64,000 nt of DNA from Escherichia coli (GCF_050920415.1 NZ_CP169309.1); one strand, 5' to 3'. Shown: positions 24,572-64,000, counted from the first letter of the stretch. Notes: generated by a model not told the origin, from the letters alone. A program made the numbers and translations.

Positions 24572-27537
24572 TATGCAAGCCTCACAATATAGTTAAATGC
24601 GATGTTTTTGACGGTGTTTTCCGCGTTACCAGCAGCGTTAACGGTGATGGTGTGTCCATGTGAACCAATCGCAACGGAGTGCGTATGAGCACCAATACCG
24701 ACAGTATGCGCGTGTGCACCTGCAGATGCTGCTGTGCCGGACAGTGAATGGCTATGATTACCATCTGTACTGGTATTCGCTAACCACCCCGTAGACATAC
24801 CTACTGAGCCTTGTACACCCCAGGTATTTTGACCTGAGCTTGTATAACCATATTGATAAGTATCTTTAAAAACACTGGGGTTAAATCGACGGCCATCTCT
24901 ATGGCTGTGATTACCAGCTGCATTCGTGCTGCCACTTAAACTATGGGTATGCGCACCAGTGTTATTCGTGGATTTAGTGCCGTAATCAAACGACGATGTG
25001 GTTTTCGTCCCCAAATCCGTACTGGATGCGCTGGCGCTGTGGGTATGCGATTTAATGCCGTCCTGTTCCTGAGACAATACGGCCCGACCACTGGCAGGTT
25101 TGCCCTTAATCGTCCAGCCACGCATATCAGGGATCACGCCTGACGGATAAGCGGCTGCAAGTTTCGGGTATGCAGATTTGTCAAAAGTCTGCCCCTGCAT
25201 CAGGGCATAGCCAGACGGAACGGTATCTGATGGCCACGGGATTGGTGCGCCAGGCGGATAAAACTGCTCTGATGGCGTATAGAGTGAATAAACTGTACCG
25301 TCCGTTAACCCTTCCGGCTTATTAGCAGAATATGCTGGTGACGTATGAATCGTCACGCTGGCATTACTGGTATAATCCCATTGAATATTTACACCAGTCG
25401 CATAATTTCCGATTGCAACGTAAATATCGTAAGTATCACCAGATGTATTGACCCAGGCAAAATTTGTAAACCCTGTCGATGTGCGCTGCCATAAAGCACC
25501 AGTAATCCCCTTCGGATTACCATTACCTGCACGTAAAACAAGTTCAGATATACCTGCCTGTTGAGGTGACCCCACGTTAAATCCAGCGCCACCAATCAAC
25601 GTAATTGAAACAACAGAACTCGCCTGTGGCATGGTTACCGTTGCTAATTTGAACCAACCAGCACCACCGCTGAATGACATTGTTGTTGAGTTAAGCGTAC
25701 CAATATCTTTCGGCGTCAGTGTTATATCCGCTGAAAGCGCCTTACCATTCACCTTACGGGCAGAAGGTACCCGACCATTCGCATTGTCATTAGCTGCTTT
25801 CACTGCTTTCGGTGTCGCAGCAAGCGTTTCAGATGTGCTGTTGGTTGCACTACTGAGCTGGACAATTCCTTTTTGTGCTGTCGTAGCGTCCTGTGCGGTG
25901 TATTTCCCGTTAGCCAGGTCATACGCGGCCTTAACGGCTTTTGGCGTTGCCGCCTGTGACTCGGAAGTGCTGTTAGTCGCACTGCTGAGCTGAACTATCC
26001 CTTTCTGTGCTGTCGTTGCATCCTGTGCGGTGTATTTCCCGTTAGCCAGGTCATACGCGGCCTTAACGGCTTTTGGCGTTGCCGCCTGTGACTCGGAAGT
26101 GCTGTTGGTCGCACTGCTGAGCTGTACTATCCCCTTTTTCGTCGTGCTCGCATCCTCAAGCGCCACGGCGGATGCAATATCCTCTGCCCGTTTTGCTGCT
26201 GTCTCGGCGCGCGTTGCCGCGGATTCCGCCGTACTTTTGCTCTGTGCTGCCGCTGCCGCACTGCCAGCAGCCTCTGTCGCCTTCGTGGATGCCGTCGTGG
26301 CGCTGCCCCTCGCTGCTGACGCCTGTCTGGTCGCCTCATCTTTTGAAGCAGACGCAGATGATGCCGATGACGCCGCCGAACTGGCGGACGATGCGGCAGC
26401 CGTTTTTGAGGATTCTGCGCTGGTTTCCGACGCTTTCGCGTTCGTTTCGGATGTCTTCGCTGCGGAAGCAGACCTCGCTGCTGCGCTGGCCTGTTCAGTG
26501 GCTTCGCCAGCCTTCGTTGTGGCTGTTGAAGCGGATGATGCGGCGCTTTCTGCCGATTTTCCGGCGGCGGTGGCACTGACTGCTGCCTCCTCTGCCTTAA
26601 TGGACGCCTCACGGGCCGATGATGCAGCTGCTGTCTCAGAGTCTGCCGCAGCTGAGGCGCTCTGTTCCGCTGCCGTTTCAGAAGACCTGGCATTCGTCTC
26701 GGACGTTTTTGCCGCCTTCACGGAATTTCCTGCCGCCGTTGCCGAGGAGGCTGCACTGCTGGCGCTTGTGGAGGCGTTCGTTTCTGATGATTTTGCCGCC
26801 TCTTTGGAGGCCGCCGCATCTCTGGCTGAAGTGGCGGCTTCTGACGCTTTCGTCGTCGCAGTGGATGCAGAAGTGGCTGCTGATTTTTGTGACGCTGCAG
26901 CATTCGTTTCTGACGTTTTCGCCGCACCGGCACTGGTGGCCGCCGCGCTTTTTGAGGACTCTGCAGCGGCAGCACTTTTTGATGCTTCAGTGGCCTTTGT
27001 TGATGCCGTTCCTGCGCTGGAAGACGCCTCCTGAGCCGAAGTCGCGGCCTGTCCGGCTGACGTGCTGGCTGCACGCGCTGAGCCTGCAGCATCAGTCGCA
27101 TGGGTTGCCGCCTCACGGGCAGATGTGCCGGCATCACTGGCTGACTTCTTCGCGGCTGCCGTGTTCTGTGCCACCGCGGACGCGTTACGCGTCACCTCTT
27201 CCACCATCAGTTCAAAACGGCGCAGAGCCTCCGGACGGGCATCATCCTCCGTCATGGCACCGAGAAAATCATTCAGCGTACCGGGTCGGGAATCTTCATA
27301 CACGGTGATGGTCCCGGCATGTGACGGCGGGAATCCTTCCACCAACAGAATAACGCTGTACTGACCGTACTCAACGTCCATGCTGTAACGCCCGGCTTCA
27401 TCCGGATTTTCTGAGGCCAGCGTGTTCACCACCACCGTGGTGCTGTTACGTTTTGCTTTCAGCTGGATTGTGCAGTTCTGTACCGGTTTTCCTGTGCCGT
27501 CTTTCAGTACACCTGAAATCTTTACTGCCATATTCAC
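24571..27537 (-). CDS. stf: Side tail fibre protein Stf (long form, Ala/Ser/Thr-rich repeats)
   Basis: 988-aa ORF after lom; conserved phage tail-fibre N-terminus ([17 protein letters not shown]...), internal 44-aa tandem repeats, C-terminal receptor-binding region. Confidence 0.9.
25795..26165. repeat. Approx. 132-bp tandem direct repeats (about 3 copies) inside stf
   Basis: Near-identical DNA blocks encode repeated [44 protein letters not shown] units; boundaries approximate. Confidence 0.7.
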
Positions 27538-56519: not shown

Positions 56520-58022
56520 ATGACTCAAACTCCTCTATTACTTGCAATCATATTTTTATTGGTTGTTCTTGTTCTTTATATAGCTGCAATCAAACGCATC
56601 AAAAAAATACAATTAGAATTAAGTGATAGCAATCAAAAAAATGAAGAATACAAATCTCGCTTTGCAGATTATTTTAATGTAGAAGAAGAATGTAAGAAGC
56701 TTATTGAGAAAACAGAGCAAGAATGCTCCATAATAAAAGAAGAATCCCTAAAAGTAAAAGAAAATGCCAATAATGAACTAACAAACACCATTGAAAAAAT
56801 GGATGGTATCAATAAACAAATCCAAGAGCTAAGAAGAACTTATAAAGAGAAGAAAGAAATATATGATAAACTAGTAAGGCAAATTTCTATTTATTCAGAA
56901 GATGTTGAGCTAGCCGAACTAGGATTTTACGAACCTCATTTTAATTTTGAAGATTCAGAGCAATTTAAAAACAAAATAAAATCCATCAGGGATGAACAGA
57001 AATTAATGCTGCGGGATAAAACCCACTCTGGCGCAGTATATTGTACAACCCAATGGACTGTTGAAGGCTCTCGAGCAGAGGGTAAAAAAATGACAGACAG
57101 AAATATCAGGCTAACTACTAGAGCATTTAATAATGAATGTGATGCTGCAATTAGCAATTGCACGTGGAAAAACATCACTAAAATGGAAGAACGCATCACA
57201 AAGGCATTTGAGGCCATAAATAAACTAAACGAGCAAAATCACATATATATAAACACTAAATACCTCAATAAAAAACTTGAGGAATTGTGGCTTACCCATG
57301 AATATCGTGAGCAAAAACAGAAAGAAAAAGAAGAACAGGCAGAAATAAGGGCACAAATGAGAGAGGAGGAGCGTGCACAACGAGAAATAGAAAAGGCCAT
57401 GCAAGACGCAGAGGCAGAAGAGCGCCGTTATAAAAAAGCAATTGAAGCTGCAAGAAAGGAAATGGAAAAAGTTACTGGTGACATGAAGCAGCGCCTCGAA
57501 AATCGCATTGCCGAACTAGAACAGAGTTTGTCGCAGGCTGAATCAAAGCATCAAAGAGCATTATCCATGGCACAACAAACCAAACAAGGTCATGTTTATA
57601 TTATTTCGAACATAGGTTCTTTTGGGGAGAATGTTTATAAAATAGGCATGACACGACGTCTTGATCCGCAAGACCGTGTAAATGAGCTCGGTGATGCATC
57701 TGTTCCTTTTATTTTTGATGTACATGCCATGATTTATTCGGAGGACGCTCCATCATTAGAAAAAAAACTACATGATGTCTTCGATAAAAAGAGAGTCAAT
57801 CTTGTAAATCGTAGAAAAGAGTTTTTCTATGTTACTCTGGATGAGATCAAAGAAGCTGTTAAAAAACACTCTGATTCAGAAATTGAATTTATTGAGACAG
57901 CAGTCGCAAAAGACTTTAATGAGTCATTGGCTATTCGTAATCATGAAAATAAAAAAAGTGACAACAGCAACTCATCAATTATACCTGAGCGAAAAACCCC
58001 AGAGTTTGCAGATGCAATTTAA
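56520..58022 (+). CDS. Membrane-anchored coiled-coil protein with C-terminal T5orf172 (GIY-YIG-like) domain; DUF4041-like architecture
   Basis: 500-aa ORF, AAGGA 8 nt before the ATG; N-terminal TM helix (LLLAIIFLLVVLVLYIAAI), long K/E/Q-rich coiled-coil, C-terminal block VYIISNIGSFGENVYKIGMTRRLDPQDRVNELGDASVPF...LEKKLHDVFDKKRVN. Opposite strand to all neighbours. Confidence 0.7.
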   Translation: MTQTPLLLAIIFLLVVLVLYIAAIKRIKKIQLELSDSNQKNEEYKSRFADYFNVEEECKKLIEKTEQECSIIKEESLKVKENANNELTNTIEKMDGINKQIQELRRTYKEKKEIYDKLVRQISIYSEDVELAELGFYEPHFNFEDSEQFKNKIKSIRDEQKLMLRDKTHSGAVYCTTQWTVEGSRAEGKKMTDRNIRLTTRAFNNECDAAISNCTWKNITKMEERITKAFEAINKLNEQNHIYINTKYLNKKLEELWLTHEYREQKQKEKEEQAEIRAQMREEERAQREIEKAMQDAEAEERRYKKAIEAARKEMEKVTGDMKQRLENRIAELEQSLSQAESKHQRALSMAQQTKQGHVYIISNIGSFGENVYKIGMTRRLDPQDRVNELGDASVPFIFDVHAMIYSEDAPSLEKKLHDVFDKKRVNLVNRRKEFFYVTLDEIKEAVKKHSDSEIEFIETAVAKDFNESLAIRNHENKKSDNSNSSIIPERKTPEFADAI

Positions 58023-59271: not shown

Positions 59272-60197
59272 AAATCCACCCCGTAAATCCAGTCAGTGTT
59301 TGTCAGGTCGAGTTTTGATTTTCCGGCTATCACGCCAGCCTGTTGCTTGTTACGGTTGATTTCGAGTTGGGTCCACTTGTCGCGGAGTTTGGCCGGACTT
59401 AGCACGTTACCGGACCAGAAGTTGTCCTGGCATGCCCAGCGGAACAGCACGCACATGTCGCGGTGGTTACGGCCGTCACGTTCACGCATCAGGCGGATAT
59501 CGTTAGCCCACCCTGCAAAATTCGGTTTTCTGGCTGATGGCGCGATGGTCTTCACCATGTCAAACATCCACTCTGCGGCGGTCAGGTCTTCTGCTGTCCC
59601 CCACCTGCTGCCGCTCTGAATTGCAGCATCTGGTTTCTCCACAGGAAGATCGTTTTCTGGTTGGTCAGAGGATTCGCCAGAATTCTCGGACGAAAAAGGT
59701 TTTATATTGTCTTTTGTTAGTTTGTCTTTTGTGTTTACCTGATTCGGGTAAGTGCCTTTACCTGATTTGGGTAAACTTTTCTTACCTGATTCAGGTAAAT
59801 TTACCTCTTTCAGGTAAACTTTATTTTTCTTACCTGATTCGGGTAATGTTGACCATTCACTGACCACATTATTAATGCCGATATTCCGCCCGCTCTGAAT
59901 AAAAATCCCACGCTTTACCAGAACACTTTTTGCAGCAGAACACTTGTGCGGCAATATCCCGGTCAACTCGGAAAGTTGCTCGTTGCTCACCCAATCCAGT
60001 TTTTTATTAAAGCCATATGTTTTGCGCATGACAGCCAGGAAGACCAGAAGCTGGTGCTGTGTTAATCCGGCCAGCATCACAGCTTCCAGCAACTCATTTG
60101 CAATGCGCGTATAACCATCATCGAGATCTGCCACGCGCGGCTCCTTTTGTGCCGCATCCGGCACTGGAAAATTGAATATCTCAGCAGTGTTTGCCAT
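59268..60197 (-). CDS. O: Replication initiator O (different iteron specificity from lambda)
   Basis: Start chosen at MANTAEIFNF (GGAGG 5 nt upstream); N-terminal domain lambda O-like (VADLDDGY...LRKTYG.NK), C-terminus P-interacting; iterons inside. Confidence 0.9.
   Translation of the reverse strand: MANTAEIFNFPVPDAAQKEPRVADLDDGYTRIANELLEAVMLAGLTQHQLLVFLAVMRKTYGFNKKLDWVSNEQLSELTGILPHKCSAAKSVLVKRGIFIQSGRNIGINNVVSEWSTLPESGKKNKVYLKEVNLPESGKKSLPKSGKGTYPNQVNTKDKLTKDNIKPFSSENSGESSDQPENDLPVEKPDAAIQSGSRWGTAEDLTAAEWMFDMVKTIAPSARKPNFAGWANDIRLMRERDGRNHRDMCVLFRWACQDNFWSGNVLSPAKLRDKWTQLEINRNKQQAGVIAGKSKLDLTNTDWIYGVDL
59736..59846. repeat. Replication origin iterons: 4 copies of TACCTGATTCGGGTAA spaced 23-24 bp, plus one degenerate copy
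   Basis: Copies at 59736, 59759, 59783 and 59831 with a degenerate copy near 59802; each has internal dyad symmetry; AT-rich block follows; inside the O gene as in ori-lambda. Confidence 0.85.
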
Positions 60198-60283
60198 AAT
60201 TCCTCCCGCAATGAGTGTGTTACGATTTGCACCTGAAAGTCGGTTCTGTTCCCGCAGACCGACTTTCGCCATTTCTGAACCTG

Positions 60284-60823
60284 TCATATTGCCCCCAGCA
60301 TGGTGGTCACCATCGCCATTAATGGACCAGCCAGATCCGGGTCCACACGAAACATCGACACAATACCTTCACTCATTTCCTTCAGTTTCTGGTGGCGTGG
60401 TGCGTTGAGAATGACAGCCTGTTTTGCCTCACTGAGTTCCTTTTCCATTTCAGCCAACCGAGTCATGAAGCTATCCTGCTCAACCAGGTAACCGCGATAT
60501 TCCAGCGGTAGTACCGCCAGAATTGCCGGGGTCAGTTCACGCACGTTATTTCGGTATTTTTCAGAATCGAATTTGTTATCGAGGAAGCGGAACAGCTTCT
60601 GGCGTGCACGGCTGACATCATCAGGGAAATCGATGGTGCCGTCGCCCTGCTCCCGATACTCATTCACAATGAGTGCGGCAACGACATCCTGATTATCTAC
60701 AGCCGACCAGGCGCGGACGGCATCACGGATTTTTTCGTGGCCTGGAGCTTGTTTTGTTTGAGAACGATTTATCACCGCAGTCGGAATAAATCCGCTAGTC
60801 TGTTGGTATGTAAGTGGTTGCAT
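60284..60823 (-). CDS. YdaT-like protein in the cII position
   Basis: 179-aa ORF downstream of cro-like gene; segment LTPAILAVLPLEYRGYL resembles the Rac YdaT motif IPAILAILPRELR (recalled from memory). Confidence 0.5.
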   Translation of the reverse strand: MQPLTYQQTSGFIPTAVINRSQTKQAPGHEKIRDAVRAWSAVDNQDVVAALIVNEYREQGDGTIDFPDDVSRARQKLFRFLDNKFDSEKYRNNVRELTPAILAVLPLEYRGYLVEQDSFMTRLAEMEKELSEAKQAVILNAPRHQKLKEMSEGIVSMFRVDPDLAGPLMAMVTTMLGAI

Positions 60824-60892
60824 AATTGACTCCTTTAGTTTGAATTGACTGTTAAGTTGATTGCTTATTGTTAAAGAGCGTGAAATGGAAAT

Positions 60893-61123
60893 TTAAGCTG
60901 CGTTCTTTTCGGTGTGTGGAAACAACTTCGGAAGATCCGGGCGAATCTGGTATGCCTTCACAACTCCACCAGTAGCCGTAACAATGCTGCCGACATGTTC
61001 AGGGGATACCTTTGCTTTGTTGTGAAGCCACTTATAGACGGCCTGCTGTGAAACTTCGCAGGCATCGCCTAGTTTCTTTTGTGAACCAACGATATTGATC
61101 GCTGTTTTGATTGCTGGGTTCAT
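60893..61123 (-). CDS. cro: Cro-like HTH repressor (YdaS-like)
   Basis: 76-aa ORF divergent from the repressor gene; HTH (GSQKKLGDACEVSQQAVYKW). Confidence 0.8.
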   Translation of the reverse strand: MNPAIKTAINIVGSQKKLGDACEVSQQAVYKWLHNKAKVSPEHVGSIVTATGGVVKAYQIRPDLPKLFPHTEKNAA

Positions 61124-61161
61124 AACAACCTCCGTGGTTAATCCGAATCAAGATTAAAACT

Positions 61162-61186
61162 ATGGTTGTTTTTAGTCAACAACCAT
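61162..61186. promoter_or_regulatory. Candidate right operator: inverted repeat ATGGTTGTT-N7-AACAACCAT between cro-like and repressor genes
   Basis: Perfect 9-bp inverted repeat in the 104-bp divergent intergenic region; a further GGTTGT half-site at about 61210. Confidence 0.6.
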
Positions 61187-61227
61187 TTTCGTTTGATGAA
61201 ATAAAACCTTGGTTGTACATTTGATCT

Positions 61228-61917
61228 ATGAAAACAACACTCTCAGAAAGACTTAAAGAAGCCAGATTAGCGCGAGGCCTTACACAAAAGGCGCTTGGGG
61301 ATTTGGTCGGGGTTAGCCAAGCTGCTATTCAGAAAATCGAAACAGGGAAAGCTAACCAAACAACTAAAATCGTGGAGATCGCGAACGCTTTGGGTGTGCG
61401 CGCAGAATGGTTATCTTCTGGCGTTGGAAATATGTCAGACAGTACAGTGCAACCAATACAATCAACTGTCAGCCATTCCAAATACTTCAAAATTGACGTT
61501 CTTGATATAGAAGTCAGTGCCGGGCCAGGTGTAATCAACCGTGAGTTTGTAGAAGTTCTACGCTCGGTTGAGTACTCGTTTGACGATGCTCGTCACATGT
61601 TCGATGGCAGGAAGGCGGAAAATATCCGCATCATTAACGTGCGAGGTGACAGCATGTCAGGGACGATCGAACCAGGTGACCTGCTGTTCGTTGATATCAC
61701 TGTTAAATCTTTCGACGGTGATGGCATCTATGCGTTTCTGTACGACGACACTGCCCATGTAAAACGTCTTCAAATGATGAAGGATAAGCTGCTGGTTATC
61801 TCTGATAACAAGAGCTACTCGCCGTGGGACCCGATCGAGAAAGACGAGATGAACCGGGTGTTCATATTCGGTAAGGTCATTGGAAGCATGCCGCAGACGT
61901 ACAGGAAGCATGGTTAA
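61228..61917 (+). CDS. cI: Prophage repressor, LexA/CI-like with S24 peptidase domain
   Basis: 229-aa ORF; N-terminal HTH (LTQKALGDLVGVSQAAIQKIETGK), C-terminal autocleavage domain (GDSM Ser, VKR Lys); not lambda immunity. Confidence 0.9.
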   Translation: MKTTLSERLKEARLARGLTQKALGDLVGVSQAAIQKIETGKANQTTKIVEIANALGVRAEWLSSGVGNMSDSTVQPIQSTVSHSKYFKIDVLDIEVSAGPGVINREFVEVLRSVEYSFDDARHMFDGRKAENIRIINVRGDSMSGTIEPGDLLFVDITVKSFDGDGIYAFLYDDTAHVKRLQMMKDKLLVISDNKSYSPWDPIEKDEMNRVFIFGKVIGSMPQTYRKHG

Positions 61918-62146
61918 TTTATCTACGACTTAAGGGAGCGAAGGTTAAGGTTTATACCACTCGGATTAGATATTGCACTAAATTCTCTATAAGAACGCCA
62001 AATCTGTTTGCATATTTCAGTAAATATTCTCGTTGTTAGCTGAGATTTGTTGCTACTGTCAGCAAAATGTCCCCCTATCTCGTAGCGGTTTTTATTTCGA
62101 ATCATTATGTTAAGATGTTTCTGATTATAATGAATGGAAACATAAA

Positions 62147-62527
62147 ATGAGAAAAATCCTAATCGCTGCCATGATGGCATCTGTATTGGCTGGGTGTGCT
62201 TCTTCAGGCAACCAGCAACTCAAAAATGAAACTGAAATTAGTGTCCAGTCTAAACTTCAGGAAGGTAAAACAACCAAGAATGAGGTTAAATCTTACTTTG
62301 GTTCTCCTGATGCTGTTTCATATACTGACAGTGGAAACGAGATCTGGAAGTACGCCTTTGCAAAAGTAAAAGTTAATGGCACCACTTTTATTCCATTCTA
62401 TGGATTATTCCATAATGGAACGAACGGTACGAAAAAAGAACTTACTATTCTTTTTAACGATGACACGATTAAGAAATACACAATGTCAGAAACCCAAATA
62501 AACTCGAAATCAGGTTGGGCTGACTGA
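62147..62527 (+). CDS. Outer-membrane lipoprotein, BamE/SmpA-OmlA-like, in the rex position
   Basis: 126-aa ORF with lipobox (VLAGCASS); KNEVKSYFGSPDAVSYTDSGNEIWKYAF...LTILFNDDTIKKYT resembles the BamE fold family. Confidence 0.6.
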   Translation: MRKILIAAMMASVLAGCASSGNQQLKNETEISVQSKLQEGKTTKNEVKSYFGSPDAVSYTDSGNEIWKYAFAKVKVNGTTFIPFYGLFHNGTNGTKKELTILFNDDTIKKYTMSETQINSKSGWAD

Positions 62528-62534
62528 TAATCAT

Positions 62535-62562
62535 ACCCGGCAACCGCGCCGGGTTTTCTTTT
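62535..62562 (+). terminator. Intrinsic terminator after the repressor-lipoprotein unit
   Basis: Stem CCCGGC / GCCGGG with 6-nt loop followed by TTTTCTTTT, 8 nt after the lipoprotein stop. Confidence 0.65.
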
Positions 62563-62687
62563 CCTCCCCCTCATAACTCATACCGTCCAAAAAACCACCA
62601 CACCTCACTTCAGTTATCGCTATGCGATGCAAGTCACAAAATAAATCCATCCTAAATACAACCAGTTATATTTAAAACAACCGACAA

Positions 62688-62717
62688 AACAACTTTTGTT
62701 GTTGACGATAAAACAAC
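62688..62717. promoter_or_regulatory. Candidate left operator: AACAAC-TTTT-GTTGTT-N8-AACAAC
   Basis: Same GTTGTT/AACAAC half-sites as the right operator, on the other side of the repressor gene. Confidence 0.4.
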
Positions 62718-62923
62718 TATAGTTTTAAATAAATTCATCGCAACGACACAACGATACGGTAACCACCTGTTTCACCGTGGCGATGACCGCTTAGATCCGC
62801 AGTTTGAATTTCAGCAGGCTTCGGGGAGTGCGAGGGGTGAAACGGACGCGTGAACGTCGGTGTGACCAGCTGAAATCAACACAACACTTTATACCTCAGT
62901 CGCTTCAACGAGGCGGCTTAGTT

Positions 62924-63214
62924 ATGACAACCGGCGGCCATCCACCGCCTGAATACGCGCAGAAGTCTCTATATGTTCAGCAGCCCAGCTTACGGGCAGG
63001 AGTTTTTATGGTTCATCAACATTACGGAACGCAGACCGTTAATCGCGGTGCGGTCATGCCAGGAATGCTGGTCAAACACAAAGATGGTACCTGGACTGCA
63101 TCAGCTAATTTACGCGGACGGCTTTATCTGCATCGCGGCATCGAGCGCACTTATACCCGTGATTTGCTCGTGGAAGTTTTTCTCGACGGACGCGGTAACG
63201 GCCTCAATCACTAA
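62924..63214 (+). CDS. Hypothetical early-left-operon protein (97 aa from ATG; frame open upstream to 62804)
   Basis: ATG at 62924 with GAGG upstream; upstream in-frame extension encodes an Arg-rich stretch (RGVKRTRERR) but has only TTG/GTG starts. Confidence 0.3.
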
Positions 63215-63289
63215 TCCCCTTTCCTGTTTTCCTAATCAGCCTGGCATTTCGCGGGCGATATTTTCACAGCCATTTTCAGGAGTTCAGCC

Positions 63290-63586
63290 ATGAACGCTTA
63301 TTACATTCAGGATCGTCTTGAGGCTCAGAGCTGGGCGCGTCACTACCAGCAGATCGCCCGTGAAGAGAAAGAGGCAGAACTGGCAGACGACATGGAAAAA
63401 GGCCTGCCCCAGCACCTGTTTGAATCGCTATGCATCGATCATTTGCAACGCCACGGGGCCAGCAAAAAAGCCATTACCCGTGCGTTTGATGACGATGTTG
63501 AGTTTCAGGAGCGCATGGCAGAACACATCCGGTACATGGTTGAAACCATTGCTCACCACCAGGTTGATATTGATTCAGAGGTATAA
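63290..63586 (+). CDS. gam: Gam (RecBCD inhibitor), short form GamS
   Basis: 98-aa ORF matching lambda GamS ([44 protein letters not shown]...). Confidence 0.95.
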
Positions 63587-63591
63587 AACGG

Positions 63592-64000
63592 ATGAGTACA
63601 GCACTCGCAACGCTGGCAGGGAAGCTGGCTGAACGTGTCGGCATGGATTCTGTCGACCCACAGGAACTGATCACCACTCTTCGCCAGACGGCATTTAAAG
63701 GTGATGCCAGCGATGCGCAGTTCATCGCATTGTTGATCGTCGCCAACCAGTACGGCCTTAATCCGTGGACGAAAGAAATTTACGCCTTCCCTGATAAGCA
63801 GAACGGCATCGTTCCGGTGGTGGGCGTTGATGGCTGGTCCCGCATCATCAATGAAAACCAGCAGTTTGATGGTATGGACTTTGAGCAGGACAATGAATCC
63901 TGCACATGCCGGATTTACCGCAAGGACCGCAATCATCCGATCTGCGTTACCGAGTGGATGGATGAATGCCGCCGCGAACCATTCAAAACCCGCGAAGGCA
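63592..64000 (+). CDS. bet: Bet (Red-beta single-strand annealing protein), 5' partial, runs off window
   Basis: Hand-translated MSTALATLAGKLAERVGMDSVDPQELITTLRQTAFKGDASDAQFIALLIVANQYGLNPWTKEIYAFPDKQNG... matches lambda Bet; not in ORF track because no stop lies within the window. Confidence 0.95.
   Translation, partial: MSTALATLAGKLAERVGMDSVDPQELITTLRQTAFKGDASDAQFIALLIVANQYGLNPWTKEIYAFPDKQNGIVPVVGVDGWSRIINENQQFDGMDFEQDNESCTCRIYRKDRNHPICVTEWMDECRREPFKTREG

Follow-up and report, generated by a model that had tools for sequence, protein, structure and literature searches.

RESULTS

Layout of the immunity and early-left region

The window analyzed here is the whole 64,000-nt stretch of E. coli DNA. 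Its part from 60.2 to 64.0 kb belongs to a lambdoid prophage and comprises the immunity and early-left region, PL being directed along the + strand (Table 1). Positions 62530-63295 are 100% identical in phage PhiR26_1, and fourteen further phage records (Perceval, 4A7 and Lambda_4C10 among them) are 90-96% identical to this interval at 98-100% coverage. In one inspected relative the prophage adjoins ybhC, a flank of the lambda attachment site. Apart from kil, gam, bet and exo, the window-type PL operon has only small lambda-like ORFs.

Table 1. Features of the immunity and early-left region, with positions counted from the first nucleotide of the window
Feature	Position	Strand	Basis or remarks
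cII	60284-60823	-	
Exact rrn-type boxA, GCUCUUUAACAA (also GCTCTTTAACAA), in the PR transcript	60868-60879	-	12-nt consensus match
cro	60893-61123	-	
OR	~61150-61225		
cI	61228-61917	+	
Lipoprotein gene	62147-62527	+	Downstream of cI
Intrinsic terminator closing the cI-lipoprotein (immunity) unit	62535-62554	+	7-pair stem (6 G-C), then T tail TTTCTTTTCC
OL operators overlapping the PL promoter	62653-62735	.	AAAACAAC repeats and inverted repeats
Predicted PL	-35 TTGACG 62702-62707; -10 TTAAAT 62725-62730; start ~62737		17-nt spacer
Untranslated 5' leader of the early-left (PL) operon, 271 nt	62737-63007	+	Conservation, no codon periodicity
segA, two adjacent stem-loops, candidate cis-acting put-like antiterminator RNA	62788-62871	+	RNAalifold, covariance model
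segA stem-loop I	62788-62832	+	
segA stem-loop II	62833-62871	+	
Arg-rich reading frame, not a gene	62804-63007	+	No N, PHROG, Pfam or PDB match; TAG and frameshifts; TAA in L064 type
HP1, long hairpin	62889-62927	+	Conserved basal stem, variable covarying apical stem
HP2, GGCGG-CCAUCCA-CCGCC	62933-62949	+	Within near-invariant 28-mer TTATGACAACCGGCGGCCATCCACCGCC (62922-62949)
Small hairpin GCCC-AGCUUAC-GGGC, then Shine-Dalgarno AGGAG	62983-62997; 62998-63002	+	Read from sequence; weak
kil, 68 aa, predicted inhibitor of FtsZ and cell division (Rac KilR/phi80 Kil type); first PL-operon gene	63008-63214	+	Profile matches
gam (RecBCD inhibitor)	63290-63586	+	Annotated in all relatives
bet	from 63593	+	After gam

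The earlier note had proposed candidate operators in 62563-63289, and this is plausible: the cI-unit terminator is followed by an AT-rich operator/promoter stretch. The repeat AAAACAAC has three copies in 62674-62717 and another in OR (61165-61172, minus strand); the window as a whole has 13, versus 3.5 expected, and the repeat builds inverted repeats such as AACAAC/GTTGTT. Among phages of differing immunity, homology begins at ~62737-62741, 6-7 nt 3' of the TTGACG-17-TTAAAT promoter, and the geometry of this predicted PL (-10, 6 nt, ATCG...) is as in phi80/HK639-type PL. Promoter and start site (62737) are predictions made from sequence.

The lipoprotein has 126 aa and a signal peptide with a Cys lipobox (phrog_3135), and its gene takes the position of rexAB, between cI and OL. 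A clearly similar 126-aa lipoprotein is encoded at the equivalent position in a phage with unrelated immunity (L064, 2722-3102). Elsewhere in the prophage, a 500-aa gene (56520-58022, + strand) for the anti-phage defence protein PD-lambda-1, annotated in the identical PhiR26_1, is inserted between ren and nin/Q and is opposed to PR transcription.

The arginine-rich reading frame is not a gene

A long frame of 136 codons (62804-63214; TTG start; translation MNFSRLRGVRGVKRTRERRC...) includes the stretch RGVKRTRERR. The earlier note had likened this stretch to the arginine-rich motif of N proteins and described it as open to GTG or TTG starts only. The layout and string are as it stated: TTG 62804 and GTG 62837 are the only starts that give access to the Arg-rich part, and ATG occurs in frame at 62924 and 63008. 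The ten codons of the stretch (62831-62860; CGA GGG GTG AAA CGG ACG CGT GAA CGT CGG) span the 3' end of stem-loop I, which is G+C-rich, and the greater part of stem-loop II of segA, an RNA module described below.

An alternative reading would make this frame the gene of a divergent N or a Nun-like protein, translated from TTG or GTG and equipped with an arginine-rich motif. RGVKRTRERR does sit in an open frame of 136 codons, and some phage annotations stretch 'Kil' upstream. Yet searches of PHROGs, Pfam and the PDB with the frame and with its Arg-rich 68 residues gave no N-family match; Kil alone was found, in the C-terminal part, and all homology begins at M69. Among 30 distinct close variants, the upstream frame is broken in 14, nine times by an in-frame TAG (C62897T) and five times by a frameshifting indel (+5, -2 twice, +37 and -1). 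All five indels lie between the Arg-rich stretch and ATG 63008, and none of the 30 variants has an indel within kil. Variable sites at codon positions 1/2/3 number 9/6/11 in the upstream frame versus 2/5/16 in kil, and codon periodicity and third-position bias are absent upstream of 63008 across the same variants. In a sister lineage (L064 type), the K codon of the motif (AAA) is TAA. Neither the TTG nor the GTG is preceded by a Shine-Dalgarno (SD) sequence, whereas AGGAG precedes ATG 63008. By this comparison the divergent-N reading is already refuted, and we give it practically no weight. A structured RNA of high G+C content gives rise to the Arg-rich frame as a by-product.

The operon between the cI-unit terminator and gam has no N gene. 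No N-like first ORF of the PL operon with its own start and ribosome-binding site (RBS) is conserved, the sole good SD plus ATG being that of kil at 63008, and PHROGs, Pfam and PDB reveal no member of N or of an arginine-rich-motif family. Annotations of PhiR26_1 and its relatives confirm the absence, since they list cI, lipoprotein, Kil and Gam, and the genes from cI to gam are morons and 'Kil', never N. With no N match in the interval and no N in relatives, the claim that no lambda-N-like ATG ORF lies between the repressor-unit terminator and gam holds, and no ORF of an N family turned up that could be a conventional N gene overlooked earlier.

kil is the first gene of the PL operon

The last 68 codons of the long frame correspond to kil, with AGGAG 5 nt before ATG 63008. 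The profile of phrog_294 aligns with residues 60-136 of the long frame (E = 2e-38), and NCBIfam NF008465 (FtsZ inhibitor) aligns over positions 1-70 of 73 with kil residues 1-68 (E = 1.8e-17). The latter score, 63 bits, is below the curated cutoff of 92, so the protein would be a divergent subfamily member. In size (68 aa against the ~70 aa typical of Rac KilR and phi80 Kil) and in its full-length profile match, it nevertheless resembles that family. A 207-nt kil CDS is annotated in HK225, HK639 and KO-TP1 and, by RefSeq, in one relative. As in HK225, HK639, KO-TP1 and phi80, kil stands upstream of gam-bet-exo; the difference is that in the window it is the first gene after PL. The first gene of the operon is kil, starting at ATG 63008, followed by gam, bet and exo. 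We are highly confident of this kil assignment and of the untranslated leader before it. Phage records extend 'Kil' over the leader RNA, to 96, 125 or 139 codons, and the assignment corrects this recurrent annotation error.

Two structured modules in the PL leader

The leader is ~96% conserved among phages with other immunity regions and carries two conserved structured modules: segA, 84 nt long and located at ~+52 to +135 counted from the predicted PL start, and HP1/HP2 (62889-62949). A second segA lineage, the L064 type, is ~80% identical (nhmmer); an exclusion-pattern search for a third gave the L064 type alone. L064-type segA is found behind 8 different PL/operator types, at a constant distance from the start.

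For 15 segA variants, the RNAalifold consensus has 22 pairs in two adjacent stem-loops, and compensatory changes affect 3 of these pairs. Pairing holds in 99.7% of cells, versus 26-39% with the partners slid. Differences between the lineages are confined to loops, wobble pairs or compensatory changes (A-U to C-G, G-C to A-U, A-U to G-C), and one variant turns a G.G mismatch into a G-C pair at a position unpaired in the consensus structure. The minimum-energy fold of each lineage alone equals the consensus, with ordinary thermodynamic stability (z = 0.1 and -0.25). Since there are just two deep lineages, the three compensatory pairs amount effectively to one evolutionary comparison, and covariation lends the two adjacent stem-loops modest support.

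A segA covariance model (R2) matched the window once, at 122.7 bits. It found no second copy on the PR side and no match in 95 put-type or boxA-type loci. A candidate second copy at 26776-26854 (minus strand; 22 bits, rough E = 0.004) was taken as chance because it is missing stem-loop I and is sited among structural genes. Searching 60000-64000 against Rfam with cmscan, at E up to 10, gave chance-level matches only, none on segA or HP1/HP2.

Other structures were considered for the leader and set aside. The whole-leader minimum-energy fold had z = +0.8. Its long-range pairing of CUGUUUCACC with GGUGAAACGG was dropped because it is unconserved in the L064 lineage, and an outer helix UUUCAGCAGG/CCAGCUGAAA, our first guess, was superseded by the RNAalifold structure with its compensatory changes. 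A 5' terminal hairpin (AUCG...CGAU, 62737-62760) was too weak, at -0.9 kcal/mol. Chance matches dominated a 16-mer scan of genome contigs, in which none of the 120 matches listed was genuine. The Pas sRNAs of a preprint have no bearing on the leader, as they adjoin capsid and tail genes.

segA occupies the position of put

The put RNAs of HK022 and HK639 are cis-acting, protein-independent antiterminators that bind the beta' zinc-binding domain. Their hallmark is factor-independent terminator readthrough that is blocked by rpoC mutations in the zinc-binding domain, for example Y75N; put has also been studied by cryo-EM (PDB 7XUE). King et al. are said to have described further antiterminator RNAs in 2011. 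We built a put covariance model (R1) from 21 putL variants and HK022 putR; it gave HK022 putL and HK639 putL 90-98 bits and putR 39.7 bits. With filters off, its best match in window positions 40000-64000 reached 7.7 bits and was sited elsewhere than segA. The phage is therefore without an HK022-type put, and the model does not recognise segA. Of the HK022-like Nun/put-type RNA mechanism that the earlier note had considered, the HK022-type put thus falls away, while an RNA-based solution is a live possibility and the general idea is probably right, with another RNA in the put slot. The nut elements that the note suggested looking for did not turn up in the PL leader: it contains no boxA within 2 mismatches, and no boxB was seen.

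Comparison of PL leaders placed segA and put between shared flanks in two contexts. L064-type phages and HK639 share ~58 nt upstream and ~55 nt downstream; between these, the L064 type has segA and HK639 has put, annotated in its record as 'putL-like antiterminator RNA'. Only three modules follow the leader common to HK639 and L064, namely put, segA, or a hairpin plus the boxA-like GCUUUUUAACAA, the last of these in phi80, HK225, ENT1 and KO-TP1. In the other context, three loci (L075, L200, L217) have PL, leader, put, AATCAAAC..TTCATACCTCAG and then HP1/HP2, and the window has PL, leader, segA, AATCAAC..TTTATACCTCAG and then HP1/HP2. Because segA replaces putL between shared flanks in two independent contexts, we infer that it is a put-like cis-acting antiterminator, a function that this positional argument makes about an even bet.

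The likeness to put extends further. segA lies in the early leader 3' of PL of an N-less lambdoid phage, in the putL slot of HK639-type phages, and, purine/G-rich like put, it forms two adjacent stem-loops that contain internal loops. It is single-copy and confined to PL, as is the one put of the HK639 genome, so that a PL-only antiterminator RNA would not be unusual. The differences are that no sequence or structure homology is detectable (7.7 bits at most in the window versus 90-98 for true puts) and that the likening is by position, antitermination and rpoC dependence belonging to put. segA is also longer, at 84 nt versus ~70 nt for put, of which ten sequences have been aligned (PMC9378689).

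Between PL and the kil/recombination genes, L064-type phages carry a strong intrinsic terminator; they have no put by model R1 and no N-like early ORF. Something must carry polymerase through that terminator. In the window-type PL operon, an intrinsic terminator-like site lies downstream (L001, 7183-7197).

A hybrid PL leader was seen in one IMG/VR contig (L057), where a put ending after GTCGAACGGCGC is joined to the consensus boxA GCTCTTTAACAA and a phi80-type leader; recombination therefore occurs inside the put/segA slot. The phi80/HK225-type PL leader itself (L236 3279-3690, the phi80 prophage of DH5alpha; L005, HK225; L006; L007) is roughly 300-400 nt long. Its 5' sequence is as in HK639; then come a hairpin, the boxA-like GCTTTTTAACAA and G-rich repeats that are conserved, GAGAACGGCGTGAGAACGG. 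The early ORFs of phi80, HK225 and L064 yielded no N-like protein, and early antitermination of the phi80/HK225 type also looks unexplained.

The HP1/HP2 module accompanies different leaders

The basal stem of HP1 (UUAUA/UAUGA in the window, UCAUA/UAUGA elsewhere) contains ATG 62924 and appears in the minimum-energy fold of 12 of the 13 variants tested. Its apical stem has at least 8 different sequences, all of which pair, and the folding z of HP1 plus HP2 is -3.6. The 28-mer around HP2 is present exactly in at least 120 IMG/VR contigs. Rare variants of the HP2 stem include five that pair by wobble, one compensatory change (AGCGG/CCGCU) and two that are disruptive.

We found the module in 147 distinct contexts, downstream of put (39), segA (28) or boxA-type leaders (55); it is not tied to one antitermination type, since it occurs with all three. 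Further copies lie at loci L005-L127, in HK639 (L128; 33115-33170, minus strand) and in phi80 (L236; 4008-4062). As a rule it stands directly behind the PL operon's first intrinsic terminator, and on its 3' side lies a conserved RBS leader that is joined to very different genes. In 116 of 126 non-window-type contexts it directly follows an intrinsic terminator tail. Records leave it unannotated or call it 'terminator'. For HP2 we set aside the terminator annotation of HK639, as most copies are without a U tail. An ORF from ATG 62924 that would encode a proline-stalling leader peptide is also unlikely. This ATG sits in the HP1 basal stem, and its frame and stop vary between variants. Selection on the peptide is not evident, because single-nucleotide variants of the 28-mer more often change an amino acid than remain silent (tally). 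HP1/HP2 might be a processing, stability or translation leader. Being located 3' of put in other phages as well, it might be another functional RNA of these operons that has escaped recognition.

The small hairpin before the SD has different counterparts at this place in other leaders. We rejected it as a boxB: GCCC/GGGC is as in lambda boxB, but the 7-nt loop is non-GNRA and differs in other leaders.

A boxA after cro in the right operon

The boxA in the PR transcript is the sole exact match in the window, with ~0.008 expected by chance (our own estimate for a 12-mer on both strands). It lies 14 nt after the cro stop, the nutR position, and 45 nt before the cII start. It is thus, by sequence, a candidate site for NusB-NusE loading of the rrn type. 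By eye, no GNRA-like hairpin that could serve as boxB lies beside it. The arrangement recalls lambda N/nut in that the PL region occupies the same place, between OL/PL and the recombination genes, and in that boxA follows cro, where lambda has nutR. It differs in that the window phage has no N gene, no boxB and, in the PL leader, no boxA, so that nut sites with boxA and boxB are not found in both early transcripts. A boxA after cro is present at 17 of 41 segA loci versus 0 of 69 put loci. Judged from these loci, it is linked to the cro/immunity type, not to segA.

Nus factors can oppose Rho without N, and translation can be repressed by a boxA close to the start codon, suhB being an example (PMC5725501). 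The boxA in the window could equally repress cII translation, because the cII start follows 45 nt later. Further along the right operon, terminator-like sites lie between ren and Q, with Q beyond them. In the HK639 record (L128, 37910-37969), an 'M3-like RNA' is annotated just after cII.

DISCUSSION

A model for early-left expression and its alternatives

We interpret the region as the OL/PL control region and 271-nt leader of an N-less lambda-like prophage, in which segA serves as a put-like antiterminator. To this explanation as a whole we assign a probability of roughly 0.55. Transcription from PL (start ~62737) would first yield the two adjacent stem-loops of segA. These would fold on the nascent transcript and, like put of HK022 and HK639, act in cis on the RNA polymerase that is transcribing them, no phage protein being needed. 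The modified polymerase would then pass downstream terminators. For the window phage, these may be the intrinsic terminator that follows orf61 and Rho-dependent sites; for the sister lineage, the terminator passed would be the strong intrinsic one preceding HP1/HP2. On the PR transcript, boxA alone could load NusB/NusE and oppose Rho without N. What counts against a function of segA in antitermination is its single copy at PL, with none in the PR operon, and the location of Q past terminator-like sites.

Early expression might also proceed with no antitermination, segA, HP1/HP2 and the small hairpin serving instead in mRNA stabilisation, RNase III processing or translation control of the toxic kil or of downstream genes. 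From segA to kil, gam, bet and exo, the window phage has no strong intrinsic terminator, and its need for antitermination is for this reason weaker than that of the sister lineage. The segA fold is not unusually stable, HP1/HP2 accompanies put, segA and boxA leaders alike, and HP1 is a long, near-perfect hairpin of the kind cut by RNase III. The lambda N leader is a known precedent for such a hairpin. Set against this, segA is not bound to kil: its L064-lineage copies stand ahead of a strong terminator and unrelated genes, 1.5 kb away from kil. Moreover, segA precisely replaces a known antiterminator RNA in two contexts, and the third module of that slot has a boxA, also associated with antitermination. 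On balance we find this explanation unlikely. The exchange of segA for put also makes it less likely that early antitermination has been lost, as the earlier note had allowed.

Still less probable, in our view, is that segA and/or HP1/HP2 are nut-like sites for an unrecognised trans-acting protein, either a phage product or the host Nus factors. To judge by the exact boxA after cro, the phage uses at least one Nus-factor signal, and many early genes of these phages are without known function. Yet the PL leader has no boxA within 2 mismatches, and the PL operon of the phage and its relatives encodes no N-like protein or protein with an arginine-rich motif; the window operon holds nothing beyond kil, gam, bet, exo and the small lambda-like ORFs. 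segA, furthermore, travels with many immunity and early-gene sets, which argues against a dedicated partner gene.

Prevalence and implications

put is the classic RNA that alone makes RNA polymerase termination-resistant, and to our knowledge the RNAs aligned with it form one sequence family. We tentatively propose, at slightly less than even odds, that segA represents a second class of antiterminator acting as nascent RNA, without sequence relationship to put, that would bind and reprogram E. coli RNA polymerase without a phage protein, with HP1/HP2 perhaps a further functional RNA. If so, a second, unrelated RNA in the put slot would provide an independent solution for comparison, and would raise the questions of which polymerase surface segA uses and which RNA features matter. 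It would also explain N-independent early expression in a very common group of E. coli prophages.

The leader (62737-62890) was detected in 2200 of 5426 complete E. coli genomes (about 40%), in 2023 of them at a coverage of at least 80%. RefSeq left it unannotated in 11 of 12 sampled matches. The HP1/HP2 module with its 28-mer was present in 2274 of the 5426 genomes. segA and HP1/HP2 are thus two abundant, unannotated structured RNA modules, which we flag for Rfam curation.
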